Shown here piece after piece: positions 16,831-52,173 of a DNA stretch of 64,000 bases. Position 1 is the first letter of the stretch; every line of letters begins with the position of its first letter. The notes under the pieces were generated by a model. It made no database searches, had not been told where the DNA came from, and saw only the letters and a list, made by a program, of their open reading frames with translations. The position numbers and the translations under genes were made by a program. The stretch is taken from positions 5,270,001 to 5,334,000 of the forward strand of contig NC_086097.1 in NCBI RefSeq assembly GCF_963921235.1, in the 5' to 3' direction. The DNA is from Mobula hypostoma (lineage: Eukaryota).

Positions 16831-18129
16831 ATTCTTTCCAGATGGTTCTGAGTTTGGAGCAGAGGGATAGGAAAATACTGTTAAAACTACCTTTGCTAAT
16901 GCGGACCAGTGCCAACCCTGACTCTTCTCCAAGTTATCATCAATTGGCAGTTGATGTGGCAATTGCTTATTTTTCTAGTCCATTAGTTAAATCGTTATAG
17001 GATCTTGATGATATCATCAATGCCCAGTTTTACCCTCTGAGTTCCCTAAGTTTCTCCTTCGTTTTCTGTGTGATGTGGAAAGATGAAGGGGCTGGTTCAT
17101 GTACCTCCAAAGGTGGGTGGCACCCTGTGATTTGCATAGGGTAAAACCGAATAGGGAGGGTCACTGTTGTCACGTACAGCCAAGATCAGGGAAAGAATGA
17201 AGATTTCTTTAAGGCAATTAAATCTCAAGTCATTACGATTGTCCAGGTTTCATCATATGACTGTGGACTGGGCTTTCAGAATGACAAAATAGTTCACTCT
17301 GTTCAAGGATGAAAGATTGGGAAATAAGTATCAGTGAGACCATAAGACATAGAATAGTACAGTGCAGGAACCAACCCTTCAGCCTACAATGTTGTGCTGA
17401 ACCAAATACATTAGTAACTAAACTAATCCCTCATACCTACACAATGTCCACTTCCCTCCACTTCCCTTTCATTCGTGTCCTTTATCTGCCTCTGCACCAA
17501 CTTCCCTTTTGGAGTTGAGCTGTTACACCAGCTGTATGCGCTGGTGTGAACTGTAGTCTCGAAGGTGCACAGCAGTTAGGGCGTGTCATGTATGGCCAAA
17601 TCAAGGCTGTGGGGCCTGTGTCCGAGAGCAGGGGATGTTGTGTATTTAATATTTCAATAATATTTGAGTAATCTCCTATATATATATATATAGGTTGATC
17701 AAGCATTCATGCTAATTTAAATAATTCATCAGGGGTTATATGCATAAATACGAGAAATGCATACATCATCACACTACCACATGATACATGCACATCCCAC
17801 TTAAAGTAAACACAAAGTTAGACCCATACTTTCAGATTCCCTTGTCTTCCTTTTCATTAGTTTAATGTTTTGAAGTTAGAAAACATTATATTGGCAGAGG
17901 TATTTTTAAAATGAACCTAAGATGGCTATCAACCTTTTGAAGCACAGGGAGATGTTCATGCTAAAAGAAGTTCAGCAAGGAACATAGAGTTAAAAAAAAG
18001 CCACGCTGCTTGTGACCGTCAGATGGGAAGACATGATTGAGTTAAAAAAGTCAGAAAATTGAAGATTTCAACGGTTCATAAAAAGTGAGTATCGGGTGAT
18101 AATAATCATAAAAAATCAGAAGGGTTGAT

Positions 18130-19340
18130 TACACAACAGGTAACTGTCTTATGTATACTGAGTTAATTTAACAATATTTTGATGAAAATGAAATAGCCAA
18201 TGAGAAATGAGTACCAATTTTGCTGAATGCATTAGGTCTAGAAGCATACAGTTTGCTTCAAAGTTCAACTGCTCCACCACACCAGCAGAAATGAGAATTG
18301 TTGATATTGTCAAGGTAACGTAGAAACATTTAGAATGAAAGTGATTGTCAATTGCAGAATATTTTAGGTTTCATAAGTGGAATTTGAAAAAAAGAGCAGT
18401 ACATTTCAGTGTAAATGGCTCCATTGAAGAGATTTTCTGAGCATTGTCAGTTCAGTCATGGGCTTATTGATACACTGAGAGATCATTCAGTTTGTGGAAT
18501 CTGGCAAGAAAGCATTCAAAAACAACTCCTAACTGAAGCGCCACTTACATTCAAGAGAGCAGTCAAACTTGCTGTTTCAATGGAAACCGCAGATAGAGAT
18601 TCAGTTGAGTTGCAGTCAGGAATGAAGGTGAGCGTCCACTAAATTGCAACAGAAGTTGGCCTGACCAAACAAGTTGTGTAACTGTTGTGGCAGGTGCTCA
18701 CATGCATCAGGCCGATGCAGATTTAAAGGTGAAACTTGCAAAAACTGCAACAAAGTAGAACACAAACAAAGAGCTTTTTGGGCAGACAAAAGTAAATTGA
18801 ATGTATAGGGAAGAGAAGAAGTTAAAAAGCCAAGTTGCAGTTTTCAAAAAGAGCACTAATCTGAACACTTCTGATGAAAAATCTGATAATAATGAAAGTA
18901 ACACAGGATTGTGTAGACTTGAGAATTATAGTGAAAACAAACAACAGACAAGCAATATAACTTCTGGTAGAAGTGAATGGCAATTAAATTGAAATGGAAA
19001 TAGACACTGGTTCAGCTGTTTCGGTCATTCCACAAAATGAGTCTGAATGGCATTTCAAAAATATTGAACTGAAGCCTGCAGATTTCCAACTCGGAACTTA
19101 TACTGGAGAAAAGATATCTCCTGTGGGAATGACATTCATAACAGTGAAATACAACAACCAAAAGCCACATTGTGCTTGTATGTGGTAAAAACAAGACAAC
19201 CAGCAATGTGGAGACATGATTGGCTGAGGCAACTACACCTGGATTGGAGATCCATCCACTATTTTCATGTCGCATCCCCTGCAATAAAGCCAATTGAAAG
19301 TGAATTTAAAAAAGTTCTGTATGATGCCACAACTGTCTAC
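18130..19340 (+). pseudogene. Gypsy gag-protease remnant
   Basis: QYFDENEIANEK.VPILLNALG; LKRFSEHCQF..LRDHSVCGI..IQKQLLTE..LTFKRAV; two degenerate CCHC knuckles at about 18671-18778; MEIDTGSAVSVI aspartic protease; RHDWLRQL. Confidence 0.9.
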
Positions 19341-19382
19341 ATGCTAAACATCATGAACTATTCCCCAGCAGAGGACAAACAG

Positions 19383-20142
19383 GTGTCGGTGTGGACCTCT
19401 GTGCCTCTGGTCGAAAAGTATATTGGATAACGGAAGGACAGAAGGGCAACGCTGCTCAGAGGAATCGTGAAAAGTGATGAAAACAGTAGTCCAACTACAA
19501 CAGTTTTTGTTGTCAACATGTCTGAGAAAGCTTCCGAAATATTAATCTTAGAACATAGAACATAAAAAATCTACAGCACATCGCATTCCTTTTGGCCCAC
19601 AATGTTGTACTGACCATGTAACCTACTCTAGAAACTGCCTAGGATTTCCCTACTGCATAGCCGTCTGATTTTCTAAGCTCCATGTACCTACCTAAGAGTC
19701 CCTTAAAAGACCTTATTGTATCCACCTCTACCACTGTCACTGGCAGTGCATTCCATGCACCTACCACTCTCAGTAATTCCTTGTGAAATATTGCTTGGTT
19801 TTAAGCTAGAAGAGAGTTCAAGGAGCTTCAGAAAAGTTGTGAGCATTCAGCTTTTGAGTTAAGGTTATTGTATAAACTTCAAATGGCAGACAAAAAAGCT
19901 GCTTGTAAAAGTAAATGCAAAGACCAAACCCCAGCTCAATGAAAGGAAGTCCAAAAAGAAAGGAATCAATGGAGATACGAAAACAGAATTTCTCAGAAGA
20001 TGGCATCGATGAGGAAAGCTCGAGAAGAGATCAGATCATAACGGGAGCGATAGGAGTATTAATAAGAGAATACTCCAGTGAACTAAATTCACCTTCCAAA
20101 GATCAAGATGCGCAAACTAGAAGAAAAGAAAGAGAAGAAAGG
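19383..20142 (+). pseudogene. RBM25: Processed (intronless) fragment of RNA-binding protein 25, RRM region, inside the Gypsy element; split by a CR1 insertion
   Basis: SDENSSPTTTVFVVNMSEKASEILI / LVKYCLVLS*KRVQGASEKL*AFSF / LRLLYKLQMADK, KLLVKVNAKTKPQLNERKSKKKG / DEESSRRDQIITGAIGVLIREYSSELNSPS match recalled vertebrate RBM25 (DENCGPTTTVFVGNISEKASDMLIRQLLAKCGLVLSWKRVQGASGKLQAFGF...KKLLVKVDAKTKAQLDEWK...RRDQMIKGAIEVLIREYSSELNAPS). Confidence 0.93.
19549..19772 (-). mobile_element. CR1 3' end inserted into the RBM25 fragment
   Basis: agaacatagaacata tail; ggcagtgcattccatgcacctaccactct; RBM25 homology resumes immediately after. Confidence 0.85.
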
Positions 20143-20330
20143 CATAGAGAGCTGTCAAAACCACGTTCTGCAGTCTCAGAGTCAACTCCTACAACCACCA
20201 CGAGGAGCGCCCAGAACCAGGGGTTGTTTTCACAGTCACAAGTCTCACCTGCCAAGCAGAGTGACACCCCTTGTCATGACAGTAGTTAGCCCACAGGAGT
20301 AAGAAAGTCTCCGCAATGATTAAATCTTTA
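20143..20330 (+). pseudogene. Gypsy pol C-terminal tail (post-integrase)
   Basis: Pro/Ser/Thr-rich stretch ending SS*PTGVRKSPQ*LNL, a decayed RRYPxRxRxPPxRL motif, just upstream of the 3' LTR. Confidence 0.7.
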
Positions 20331-20557
20331 CACCTGAATGGGACAATTTAAAAATACACTATGTTGTAGATATCTATATATAGTAGTTGTATTATATAGT
20401 AAAATGTGTGCACAGTTATATTGAGTTTGAGTTTATAGCACAGTACAGTGGAGTGTTGTGTATTTAATATTTTAAAAATATTTGAGTAATCGTACATATA
20501 TACTGTATTGGCTGATTAAGCATTATAGTTCATTTTAATAATTTATTACTGGCTATA

Positions 20558-21902
20558 CAGTATTCAGCCCCCACCCCCTTGGAGCTTTCATGTCTTATCG
20601 TCTTACAACATTGAATCACAGTGGATTCAATTTGGCTTTTTTGACACTGATCAACAGAAAAGGGACTCTTCCGTTTCAAAGTGAAAACAGATCTCTACAA
20701 AGTGAGCTCAATAAATTATAAATATATAACACAAAATAACTGATTGCATAAGTATTCGCCCCTTTAATATGACACACCAAATCCTCACTGGTGTGGCCAT
20801 CTGGTTTTAGAAGTCACATAATTAGTTAAAAGGAGATCTGTTTTTGGAGACCCATGTGCAGTCAACGTGTTTCAAATGACTGTAGTAAAAATACACCTCT
20901 ATCTGGAAGGTCCAACTGCTGGTGAGTCAGTATCCTGGCAAAAACGACACCATGGAGACAAAAGAACACTCCATGCAATTCCACGAAAAGATTGTTGAAA
21001 AGCACAAGTAAGGAGATGGATAGAAGAAAATTTCCAAGATACTGAATATTCCTTGGAGTATAGTTAAGTTGGCTGGAGTTTGCCAGAAGGCATGTGGGAG
21101 ACTCTGAGGTCAGCTGAAAGAAAGTTCTACAGTCTGATGAAACCAAAATTGAGCTTTTTGGCCATCAGACTAAACGCAATGTTTGGCATAAGCAAAACAC
21201 CTCACATCATCAAAAATACACCATCCCTACCGTGAAGCACGATGGTGCTGCATCATGTTGGGAGATACTTCCCTACAACAGGCCCTGGAAAGCTTGTGAA
21301 GGTAGATGGTAAAATGAATGCAACGAAATACAGGGAAATCCAGGAGGAATACCTGATGCAGTCTGCAAGAGAACCACAACTTGGGAGAAGATTTTTGTTT
21401 TCCAGCAAGACAATGACCCCAAGCATAAAGCCAAAGCTACAAAGTTAATGTCTTGGAGTGGCCAAGTCAGAATCCAGACCTCTATCCAATCGAGAATTTG
21501 TGGCTGGACCTGAAAAAGGCTGTTCACTCACGATCCCCATGCAATTTGGCAGAGCTTAAGCAGTTTTGTAAAGAAGAATGGGGAAATATTGAAGTGTCCA
21601 GATATGCAAAGCTGATAGAGACCTATCCACACAGACTCAAGGCTGTAATTGCTGCCAAAGGTTCATCTACCAAATACTGACTTGTAGGAAGTGAGTAATT
21701 ATGCAATCAATTATTTTGTGTTTAGTAATTACAATGAATTTACATCAATCCATAGAAATTTGTTTTCATTTTGACACAGAAGAGTCTTTTCTGTTGATCA
21801 GTGTCAAAAAAATCCAAATTAAATCCATTGTGATTCAATGTTGTAAAACAGTAAAACATGAAGATTTCTGTGGAGGAGGGTGAATACTTTCTATAGGCAC
21901 TA
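20558..21902 (+). mobile_element. Tc1-family DNA transposon, decayed, inserted in the Gypsy 3' LTR
   Basis: Long (about 200 bp) imperfect TIRs, TA on both flanks; SDETKIELFG, PTVKH, QQDNDPKHKAK, EWPSQNPDLYPIENLW (DD34E type). Confidence 0.93.
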
Positions 21903-22009
21903 TATGTATAAATAATTAATACTATGTGATACGTGTGCACCTCACTTAAAGTAAACATGGAATTAGACCTGCATTTTCAAACTCTCTTGTCTCCTTTTGA
22001 ATTAATTTG

Positions 22010-22438
22010 AATTAATTGGGTCTTTATTCTTTGCAGCGTAGAAGGTTGGGGGGGACTTGATAAAGGTATTTAAAATTATGAGGGGGATGGATAGAGTTGT
22101 CGTGGATAGGCTTTTTCCATTGAGAGTGGGGGAAATTCAAACAAGAGGACATGAGTTGAGAGTTAAAGGGCAAAAGTTTAGGGGTAACATGAGGGGGAAC
22201 TTTACTCAGAGAGTGGTAGCTGTGTGGAACGAGCTTCCAGCAGAAGTGGTAGAGACAGGTTCGATGTTGTCATTTAAAGTTAAATTGGATAGATATATGG
22301 ACAGGAAAGGAATGAAGGGTTATGGGCTGAGTGCAGGTCGGTGGGACTAGGTGAGAGTAAGAGTTCGGCATGGACTAGAAGGGCCAAGATGGCCTGTTTC
22401 CGTGCTGTAATTGTTAAATGGTTATATGGTTATTTGGT
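22010..22438 (+). mobile_element. CR1 3' fragment inserted in the Gypsy 3' LTR
   Basis: IKVFKIMRGMDRV..TRGHELRV..FTQRVVAVWNELP; (tatatggt)n tail. Confidence 0.9.
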
Positions 22439-28039: not shown

Positions 28040-29780
28040 CACTTTCCACAAGACCATTAAAAGCGTCAGACACAGGAGCAGAATGAGTCAGTTTGTCCCT
28101 TGAGTCTGTTCCGCCATTTGATCATGGCTGATTTATTTTTCCACCAAAATCAATTCTCTTGCCTTCTCCCCATAACCTTTGACACCTTACTTCAAGAACG
28201 TAACAAATTCTGCTTTAAATATATCAAATGAATTGCCCTACACTGTCGCCTATGGCAATGAATTCAATAGATTCACTATCCTCTGGTTAAAGAAATTCCA
28301 CCTGATTTCTTACCTCAAGGGATGTCCTTCTATTCTGAGGTTGTGCCCTTTGATCTCATACTGTAAGAGACATCTTCTTCACATCCATTATATCTAAGTC
28401 TGTCAATATTCAGTAAGTTTCAAAGTAAGTTTCTCATTCATCTAAACTCTAGTGAGTGCAGGCCCAGAACCATCAAACATTCCTTTTACATTAACTGTTT
28501 AGTTTCCAGAATCATTCTCATAAACCTCCCCTGGACCCTCTCCAATGCCAGCACATCTGTCCTTAGGTATGGAGCACCAAACTGCTCACAATATTCCAAG
28601 TGTGGTCTGACCAACACCTTATAAAGCCTCAGTATTGCATCCTTTCTTTTATATTCTAGTCATCTCAAAATGAATGCTAACATTGCATTTGCCTTCCTTA
28701 CCACTGACTCATCGGCAAGTTAATCTTTAGGGGATCCTGAAAAAGACTCCCAAGACCCTTTGCACCTCCAATTTCTGAATTTGTTCCCTGATTAGAAATT
28801 TGTCTAAGCCTTTATTCCTTCTACCAAAGTGTATGATCATACACTTGCATTGCATTCCATCTGCCACTTTGCCCAATCCTCCTAAACTGTCCATGTCCTT
28901 CCATAGCCTCTCTGTGTCCTCAAAGCTACCTGCCCTCCACTTATTTTGCATCATCCACAAACTTGGCTACAAAGTAATCAATTCCGTCATCCATATCATT
29001 GTCATATAATGTGAGTAGTAGCTGACCCAACGTTGATTCCTGCGGAACACCACTAGTTACTGGCAAACATCAGAACCATACTGGTTGTGATTAGATCCTC
29101 TTTATTCCCACACTTTGCCTCCTGCCAGTCAGCCAAGCTTCTACGTATCTTCCCTGCAACATCTACCACCCCACCAGCCTCCGGGTCCAACATATTATTC
29201 TCCGTAACTTCCGCCACCTCCAACGGGATCCCACCACTAAGCACATCTTTCCCCCCCATCCCTCCCCACTGATCTCCCTCCTGGCACTTATCCATGTAAT
29301 GGTTGTGATTAGATCCTCTTTATTCCCACACTTTGCCTCCTGCCAGTCAGCCAAGCTTCTATGTATCTTCCCTGCAACATCTTGTGCTCTTATCTTGTTT
29401 AGCAACCACACCTTGTCAAAAATGCAAATAAGCAACATCCACTGACTCTCCTTTGTCCAAACTGCCTATTATTTCCTCAAAGAATCCCAACAGATTTGTC
29501 AGCAAAGATTTCTCCTTAAACAAACCATGCAGACTTTGGCATATTTGATTGTGTTCCTCCAACTACCTCAAAACGTCATTCTTAATAATGCACCCTAACA
29601 TCTTCCCAGCCACTGACGTCAACCCAATTTCCTGTCTGTTGCCTCCCTTCCTTCTTAAAGAGTGGAGTGACATTTCCAATTTTACCGTCCTCAGGAACCA
29701 TGTCAGAATCTGGAGATACTTGTAAAATCATTACTAATGCCTCCATGATCTATTCAGCCACCTCTTTCAGAACCCCAGAA
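28040..29780 (-). mobile_element. CR1 LINE, degenerate RT to 3' end
   Basis: KCMIIHFGRRNK, VQRVLGV, LVRPHLEYC, VPQEST motifs on the minus strand. Confidence 0.88.
29165..29299 (+). mobile_element. Internal Penelope-like ORF fragment flanked by an 83-bp direct duplication
   Basis: Encodes YHPTSLRVQHIILRNFRHLQRDPTTKHIFP and PTDLPPGTYPC; 29082-29164 is repeated at 29300-29382 with one mismatch. Confidence 0.8.
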
Positions 29781-48673: not shown

Positions 48674-49493
48674 TGTGACAACAGACCAAATTATCAGAAG
48701 ATTGATGCCGATAAGAGGACAATGGGGGAACATTCAAAATGCTAATAAGAGAGAGACGAGAGAGATTACCGAAAGGAGACACAGTTCCGAGTATTGTCAG
48801 AGACCGGTTGCTTTGAACCTGAACTGTTTGAAGTTTGATGGACAGGCGATACCCCAGCAGAGGGATAAAAAGGGACAGGTTCGCTAAGACACGACACACC
48901 ACCACACGACACCACGAGGTAACGAGACCCTGGAAGCGGTGTGCCCTTACAAGTTGGTGGGAGTTTTGGAGGTCTGGTCGCGGACCAGCCATAGACGCAC
49001 AGGGTGGAAAGATACGGTCGGGCGGGAACCCGGTGTGTGTGTCCGCCCTTGCCTGGGTGCCGGGTTCACCGCAGAAGAACGATCGCATCTGGAACGGAGG
49101 GGTCACAGTCAGTGACCTCAGAAGACATTACAAAGGGCTCGCCCGAAAGCTAACTGTGAGGAATATCGAAGGTCTGTTTGGAATCCGATTTGCATATTCA
49201 TTCGCTCTCTCTCCCTCCCCAATGGCAAAACAGCGATTACTGCGAACTGAACTCTGTGTCACTTGAGACTGATCATTTTACCCCTAGACTGCGATAGAGC
49301 TTGATTGATCCTATTATCCTAGTTCTGTGTACATGTGTGTTTATTCATTGCTAACCTGTTGCATTTATATCCTTACTATTAGAGTACTGTGTTACTTATT
49401 ACTTTAATAAAACTTTCTTAGTTCCAGTAATCCAGACCCAACTAAGTGGTCCATTTCTGCTGGTTTGGCAACCCAGTTACGGGGTACGTAACA
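48674..49493 (+). mobile_element. Solo LTR (820 bp)
   Basis: TGTGAC...GTAACA; exact 4-bp TSD GCCC (48670-48673, 49494-49497); AATAAA near the 3' end. Confidence 0.92.
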
Positions 49494-51097: not shown

Positions 51098-51205
51098 CAG
51101 TGCCGATAAAAAGTATTCATTCCACCCCCCCATGGAAGTTTTCATGCTTTATTATGTTACAATATTGAATCACAGTGGATTTTATTTGACTTTTAACATT
51201 GTAAA
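51098..51205 (+). mobile_element. Isolated left TIR of the Tc1 family seen at 20558-21902
   Basis: cagtgccgataaaaagtattca..ggaagttttcatg..ttgaatcacagtggattt. Confidence 0.8.
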
Positions 51206-51340: not shown

Positions 51341-52173
51341 TCTTACGTACTCCATAACTGGGTTGCCAAACCAGCAGAAATGGACCACTTAGTTGGAGTC
51401 TGGTTTAACAGAAACTAATAAAGTTTTATTAAAGAAATAAGTAACACAGTACTCTAATCATAAGGATATAAATGCAACAGGTTAGCAATGATAAAACACA
51501 CTTGTACACAGAACTAGGGTAATAGGAATCAATCAAGCTCTACCGCAGTCTAGGGGTAAAATGATCAGTCTTAAGTGACGCAGAGTTCAGTTCAGCTTAG
51601 TACAGTTTGCAGTAATCGCTGTTGTGCCGTTGGAGAGAGAGAGAGAATGCAAATTTTGATTCAAACAGACCTTTGATGTTCTTCGCAGTTAGCTTTCGGG
51701 CGAACCCTTTTATGTCTTCTGTTGTCACCGACTGTGACCCCTCCATTCTGGATACGACCGTCCTTCCGCAGTGAACCAGGCACCCAGGCAAGGGCGGACA
51801 CACATACCAGTTTCCCGTCGATCGTACCTTTTCACCCTGTGTGTCTATGGTCGGTTCCCGTGATCAGACCTCCAAACTCCCACCAACTTATGGGGGAACA
51901 CCGCTCTTCCAGGGTCTCGTTATCTCGTGAACTCGTGGTTTGTGTCGTGCCTTAGCGAACCTGTTCTTTTTATCCCCCTGCTGGGGTATCGCCTGTCCAT
52001 CAAACTTCAAACAGTTCAGATTCAAAGCAACCGGTCTGTTAATATTCTGAAATGTGTTTCTTTCTTGTTAATCTCTCTCTTCTCTCTTATTAGCATTTTG
52101 AATGTTTCTCCATTGTCTCACTTATCTCTCTCTCATTAGCATCAATCTTCTGATAACTTGGTTTTTCGTCACA
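51341..52173 (-). mobile_element. Solo LTR, same family as 48674-49493, opposite orientation
   Basis: Reverse-complement homology along its full length; exact TSD CTGT (51337-51340, 52174-52177). Confidence 0.92.

Follow-up and report, generated by a model that had tools for sequence, protein, structure and literature searches.

A window of 64,000 nt from the genome of Mobula hypostoma (NC_086097.1) contains a fragment of the host gene RBM25 inside a Gypsy retrotransposon, which raises the question of whether the reading frame linking the two parts drove the success of the chimera or arose by chance. A preliminary description of the locus proposed that the reading frame is preserved across both Gypsy–RBM25 junctions, and that the ancestral element may have encoded one polyprotein with a host RRM. 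The chimera itself is real: it is a decayed Gypsy element in which the RT–RNaseH–integrase region has been replaced by a spliced RBM25 cDNA.

The element is bounded by two LTRs on the forward strand. The 5′ LTR occupies positions 17636–17886, with an approximate 3′ end, and starts with the same 12-mer as is found at position 20454, where the 3′ LTR begins. Comparison with the 5′ LTR divides the 3′ LTR into a first part (20454–20555; 90/110 identity) and a second part (21905–22012; 79/108 identity), so that the LTRs differ at 49 of 218 aligned sites (22.5%). No target-site duplication is readable because the end of the 3′ LTR has been lost. The two parts are separated by a DNA transposon (20556–21904, no strand assigned) with TA flanks and inverted ends that are 77% alike over about 230 bases, which we take to be Tc1-like from its ORF fragments. 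The present copy is a dead element. A purine-rich run at 17625–17635, directly before the 5′ LTR, resembles a polypurine tract and could equally be a chance occurrence or the remnant of an upstream element.

Comparison by tblastn with the Gypsy proteins P0008 and P0007 identified a decayed gag, an aspartyl protease, and the linker preceding RT at 18415–19325 (forward strand), including a zinc knuckle (18677–18823) and the protease proper (18931–19161). The region contains several stops and frame changes, and its Pfam gag-asp_proteas match is weak (E = 0.001, below the cut-off); the putative gag start probably lies farther upstream of 18415. Gypsy relatives align over 18677–19340, covering the zinc knuckle, the protease, and the pre-RT linker. 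RT, RNaseH, and integrase gave no match across the whole window, and P0007, which bears all three, aligns only at 19027–19340. The RBM25 piece therefore sits in place of an internal part of the ORF, between discontinuous Gypsy flanks, with the Gypsy match ending before RT. On its other side, between the right junction and the 3′ LTR, a heavily multi-copy segment without RBM25 match (20143–20337, forward strand) is the putative C-terminal tail of the Gypsy polyprotein, for which no database relative covering the tail was retrieved. Its stops at 20287, 20317, and 20335 lie in one frame, and the next frame first stops at 20300.

The best match for the captured piece was an RBM25-like protein of the shark Heptranchias perlo, first among 256 hits, which by itself points to a cartilaginous fish as host. 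The piece starts with a shark-type RBM25 alternative exon (19335–19382, forward strand, predicted boundaries) that matches the N-terminus of H. perlo isoforms X1 and X2 and of the unnamed protein P0133. More specifically, the residues encoded by the 14 codons at 19341–19382 match the N-terminal exon of isoform X2 (XP_067833825.1), and the motif of this exon is present in 3 of 147 database proteins. This match rules out three other assignments of 19341–19382: a spacer of unknown origin, the end of an intron, and a piece captured from a second gene. An old splice isoform of RBM25 is in this way preserved as a fossil in the captured segment; among the matches, its alternative exon is seen only in a shark gene model and in one unnamed protein. 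In the captured mRNA, this exon is joined in the X2 manner, and the four residues that X1 has in addition are absent.

The next RBM25 exon, which includes the start of the RRM, occupies 19383–19547 (forward strand; exon limits from the fish loci L001 and L002) and carries a stop at 19428, eight extra bases at 19440–19447, and one extra base at about 19470–19472. It is followed by a later insertion inside the RRM, the 3′ end of a LINE-like element on the reverse strand (19548–19785), of which similar copies are found elsewhere in the window; the LINE label is given by resemblance, a Pfam search having returned no match. Other copies of the family are without this insert (joints 19547>19786). 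Frameshift-aware alignment to P0132 and P0133 revealed three further exons with intron-free joins at 19780–20141 (forward strand), with stops at about 19807 and at 19840, a loss of about 32 bases near 19855, and frame changes at 19892, 19989, and about 20122–20128. Exons that lie apart in the two fish loci, with introns between them, are contiguous here or are bridged in other copies, which indicates that a spliced RBM25 mRNA was captured. The piece holds the whole RRM (Pfam RRM_1, residues 52–120 of P0132) in sense orientation; in a Pfam search of the decayed RRM pieces of this copy, the domain was not recognized. A metagenome scan yielded only two ordinary fish-like RBM25 loci.

With the parts defined, the left junction can be placed at 19326–19340 (forward strand): the alignment of Gypsy relatives reaches 19340, and that of RBM25 P0133 starts at 19326. 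The two alignments run in one frame with no gap and overlap, at the protein level, in an Ala-Thr-x-Val similarity. The preliminary description had located this junction at the VSVW step, about 50 bases too far downstream; the stretch between the two positions is the shark RBM25 alternative exon. The frame itself is as proposed. Gag, protease, and RT occupy one frame in the relatives P0007 and P0008, and the host domain is in frame with the gag–protease region. The left junction alone decides whether the RRM is fused to Gag–protease, and the founder probably encoded a Gag–protease–RRM polyprotein, made passively. To this extent the proposed ancestral polyprotein is retained; nothing indicates selection on the fusion.

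Among the 32 contig pieces listed (with 92,782 further pieces beyond these), four bridge the left junction: the locus itself, a contig of organism B that differs by 4% and is a probable orthologue, and two diverged copies (14% and 18%). The net length of one diverged copy is fully accounted for by the known break at 19161; in each of the other two non-self contigs, a single extra letter is left unexplained. The organism B contig (run X5, contig 31, 19208–19574) also spans the 8-base lesion and enters the LINE-like insert, and both features are thus probably older than the divergence of organisms A and B.

Two stop-free stretches, 19068–19430 and 19915–20289, exist as originally described, and the peptides quoted from them and the purine run at 20119–20142 are present in the sequence. 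It is important to note that both stretches conceal compensating frameshifts. The reading into PTTTVF, originally given as having no frame change, passes through the eight extra bases and the one extra base noted above, which put 19440–19472 off frame and cancel in sum. The second stretch is stop-free as stated but proves to be a mosaic, its first 25 codons being off the RBM25 frame, and in our reading about 20203–20227 also looks off frame relative to other copies.

The right junction is located in an A/G run (20119–20142, forward strand). Upstream of it, the RBM25 residues follow the frame of the long ORF, and the Gypsy tail is read in that same frame. However, an exact match to the conserved RBM25 word KEKK lies in the neighboring frame rather than in that of the tail, and the run is two bases short of shark RBM25, most of the RBM25 proteins counted keeping a fixed 16-residue spacing. 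RBM25 and the tail thus read the run, suggested earlier as a site of microhomology, in different frames; the claim of two in-frame joins holds for the left junction and is unproven for the right one, and the notion that the template switch preserved both frames is not supported. Most simply, the switch would have been out of phase and then hidden by a loss of bases from the A/G run, in which case the in-frame appearance may be a by-product of slippage. Likelihood ratios, which depend on our own rough indel rates, favor such a shift by 15–67 with a tail-like background but give 0.35–0.7 with a purine-rich background, slightly favoring no shift. P0133 aligns through the junction without a shift, which also counts against it. 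Among 12 of 36 indel rows listed, none falls in 20113–20145, which hints that other copies share the length of the run; the one non-self contig among the 32 listed that crosses the junction is 15% different and one letter longer overall. The alternative frame is open to 20300, and the tail frame stops at 20287–20335; the phase of the right junction therefore alters only a short C-terminal tail.

How often a junction would fall in frame by chance was estimated from words of 5–7 letters common to the Gypsy and RBM25 coding pieces. Such words are in the same phase 25–35% of the time, which makes one in three per junction, the chance originally assumed, the appropriate null. By this measure, the one secure in-frame junction does not exceed expectation, and the frame at the left junction is a 1-in-3 event. 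There is no excess of same-phase words, which rules out an in-phase bias of microhomology as the cause of the frame. A further shift may lie within the RBM25 part, where an extra letter at 19989 accounts for 147/163 of the depth in an RNA-type run and for 0/184, 0/982, and 0/194 in DNA runs, a weak hint of a family-wide frameshift. The frame through both junctions is broken in this copy, and a continuous one in the founder is somewhat less likely than not. Run X22 was designated as RNA by guess, and its junction contigs, being 14–15% different from this copy, were not used as evidence of expression.

Other copies of the chimera exist, so the uniqueness that the preliminary description had named as a ground for refutation does not apply. 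In DNA runs from three organisms (A, B, and D), 74–117 distinct diverged contigs per site were detected in every run at 19351, 20057, and 20112, all within the RBM25 part, which rules out a single copy; these contigs skip the insert at 19548–19785. The summed contig depth inside that part is 200–1100 times that of the contig of the locus itself, a value that means only that there are many copies and is not a copy number. Diverged contigs bridge both the left junction (two, 14–18%) and the right junction (one, 15%), consistent with secondary spread as a non-autonomous unit. Most other copies lack the stops seen here at 19428, 19840, and 20287, as would be expected with or without selection.

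The present copy retains 129 of 183 residues identical to shark RBM25 and has three stops, whereas intact proteins share 83–93%. A neutral null at 10–14% divergence predicts an identity of 0.67–0.74 and about two stops. The RBM25 part of this copy has thus decayed neutrally, with no sign of selection on the captured domain here; the neutral decay of one dead copy is uninformative about the founder. No protein joining both parts was present among nine full-library matches or 147 database proteins, collections that may be poor in this lineage. P0004 appeared to hold both parts owing to alignment run-on alone, and P0003 was disregarded as a low-complexity match. Homologue searches with two junction peptides as single sequences gave 99 and 109 candidates, none of them significant; a PDB search returned nothing useful, and viral and prokaryote collections, scanned by pattern and by protein, yielded no copy of the element.

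Based on these data, we modestly favor a model in which the chimera arose by template switching and spread in trans, the left frame being due to chance and the in-frame look of the right junction to shortening, with no driving role for the frame. In a Gypsy particle that had also packaged spliced RBM25 mRNA, RT would have left the element RNA for this second template within an A/G-rich word near an exon end, copied back through the RRM, and returned to the element at the short Ala-Thr-x-Val similarity just past the protease. The product would have kept both LTRs and gag–protease, lost RT–RNaseH–integrase, and multiplied in trans as a non-autonomous family from an unselected founder. Alternatively, the left junction could be a splice, with an element residing in an RBM25 intron and a cryptic donor after the protease joined to the alternative exon, the 3′ end being restored by one later switch. 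Splicing into a host exon followed by a later switch is the classical route of oncogene capture. In its favor, the predicted exon start at 19335 falls between the limits of the junction, and splicing in phase 0 would account for the frame. Yet the three residues before 19335 equal those of P0133 (ATTV, 4/4, versus 2–3/4 in distant Gypsy relatives), suggesting that the capture extended into the end of the exon before it, and we assign this route a very slight probability.

The frame could also have been more extensive than the favored model implies. The founder may have had one open frame from gag to the stop of the element, by chance and with an unselected product; this would require an in-phase switch on the right, or a shortening of the run that came about during switching. 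The in-frame left junction, the absence of the three stops from most copies, the lack of indels in the right-hand run among the rows listed, and the likelihood with a purine background are in line with such a founder, but the likelihood with a tail background, the extra letter at 19989, and the longer length of the sole other right-junction contig among those listed are not, and we consider it rather unlikely. Finally, the fusion could have been selected, either because the captured RRM helped to package or stabilize the element RNA or because an unbroken frame protected that RNA, which would explain the expansion. The capture of a whole RRM in sense and in frame with gag–protease and the abundance of the family in three organisms agree with this idea, as does the purifying selection described for host genes captured by crocodilian ERVs (PMC4299795). 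However, non-autonomous elements can proliferate without coding (PMC5131818). Moreover, no fusion protein appeared among the proteins surveyed, one in-frame junction is readily obtained by chance, and the stop position is nearly equal in either tail frame; selection on the RRM or on the frame is thus highly improbable.

In the gag-onc fusions of acutely transforming retroviruses, Gag is joined in frame with a host domain in defective, helper-dependent genomes. The chimera resembles these in all three respects but differs in being a Gypsy element without env, in having captured a splicing-factor RRM, and in that no selected phenotype is seen.

The structure is one of LTR-mediated retroposition, an already known mechanism that has been described in animals (Tan et al. 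2016, PMC5131818). As in those cases, a sense, intron-free mRNA fragment replaces an internal part of the ORF between discontinuous halves of the element, and the chimera can be retroposed again. In contrast, the cases of PMC5131818 are young and have few insertion sites, whereas the family described here is old, as gauged by its LTR divergence, and very abundant. The in-frame figure of "14 of 17" in that work is measured against the parent gene rather than gag. Maize Bs1 and human HERV-K/FAM8A1 likewise hold host exons inside an LTR element (via PMC5131818). Bs1 copies have common switch points and a mixture of in-frame and out-of-frame captured parts, but the 1–5 copies of Bs1 draw on three parent genes, compared to one parent gene and far more copies here (via PMC5131818). 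The capture of KIT-ligand and nectin3 by crocodilian ERVs (PMC4299795) similarly involved host mRNA that multiplied in a vertebrate germ line before a species split. Those captures comprise intact, separately selected ORFs in 6–9 copies, unlike the RBM25 piece, which is fused behind the protease and replaces pol, with no intact copy seen. A search of the open-access literature found no paper on RBM25 with a Gypsy retrotransposon or on RBM25 retrocopies, and RBM25 is absent from the main text of bioRxiv 10.64898/2026.06.26.734816, whose supplementary tables may list it.

The frame adds little to this known capture mechanism, since only the left junction bears on the RRM fusion. More generally, the many copies are independent time capsules in which past selection on a captured host domain, to the benefit of the element, could be tested directly, as is rarely possible in vertebrates, and they preserve the old RBM25 isoform with its shark-type alternative exon. 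Were the selected fusion true, the element would be a retrotransposon that had appropriated a splicing-factor domain from its host and become widespread in genomes of the cartilaginous-fish type.

Other repeats were observed in the window. Two pieces of the ends of the decayed Tc1-like transposon also match 51099–51194. Several long inverted-repeat arms, 79–95% complementary and about 2–3 kb apart, at 48777–49428 and 51408–52061 probably represent another DNA transposon or a foldback element. A direct repeat of 86 bases (29079–29164 and 29297–29382, 218 bases apart) is 98% identical and much younger than the other repeats of the window.
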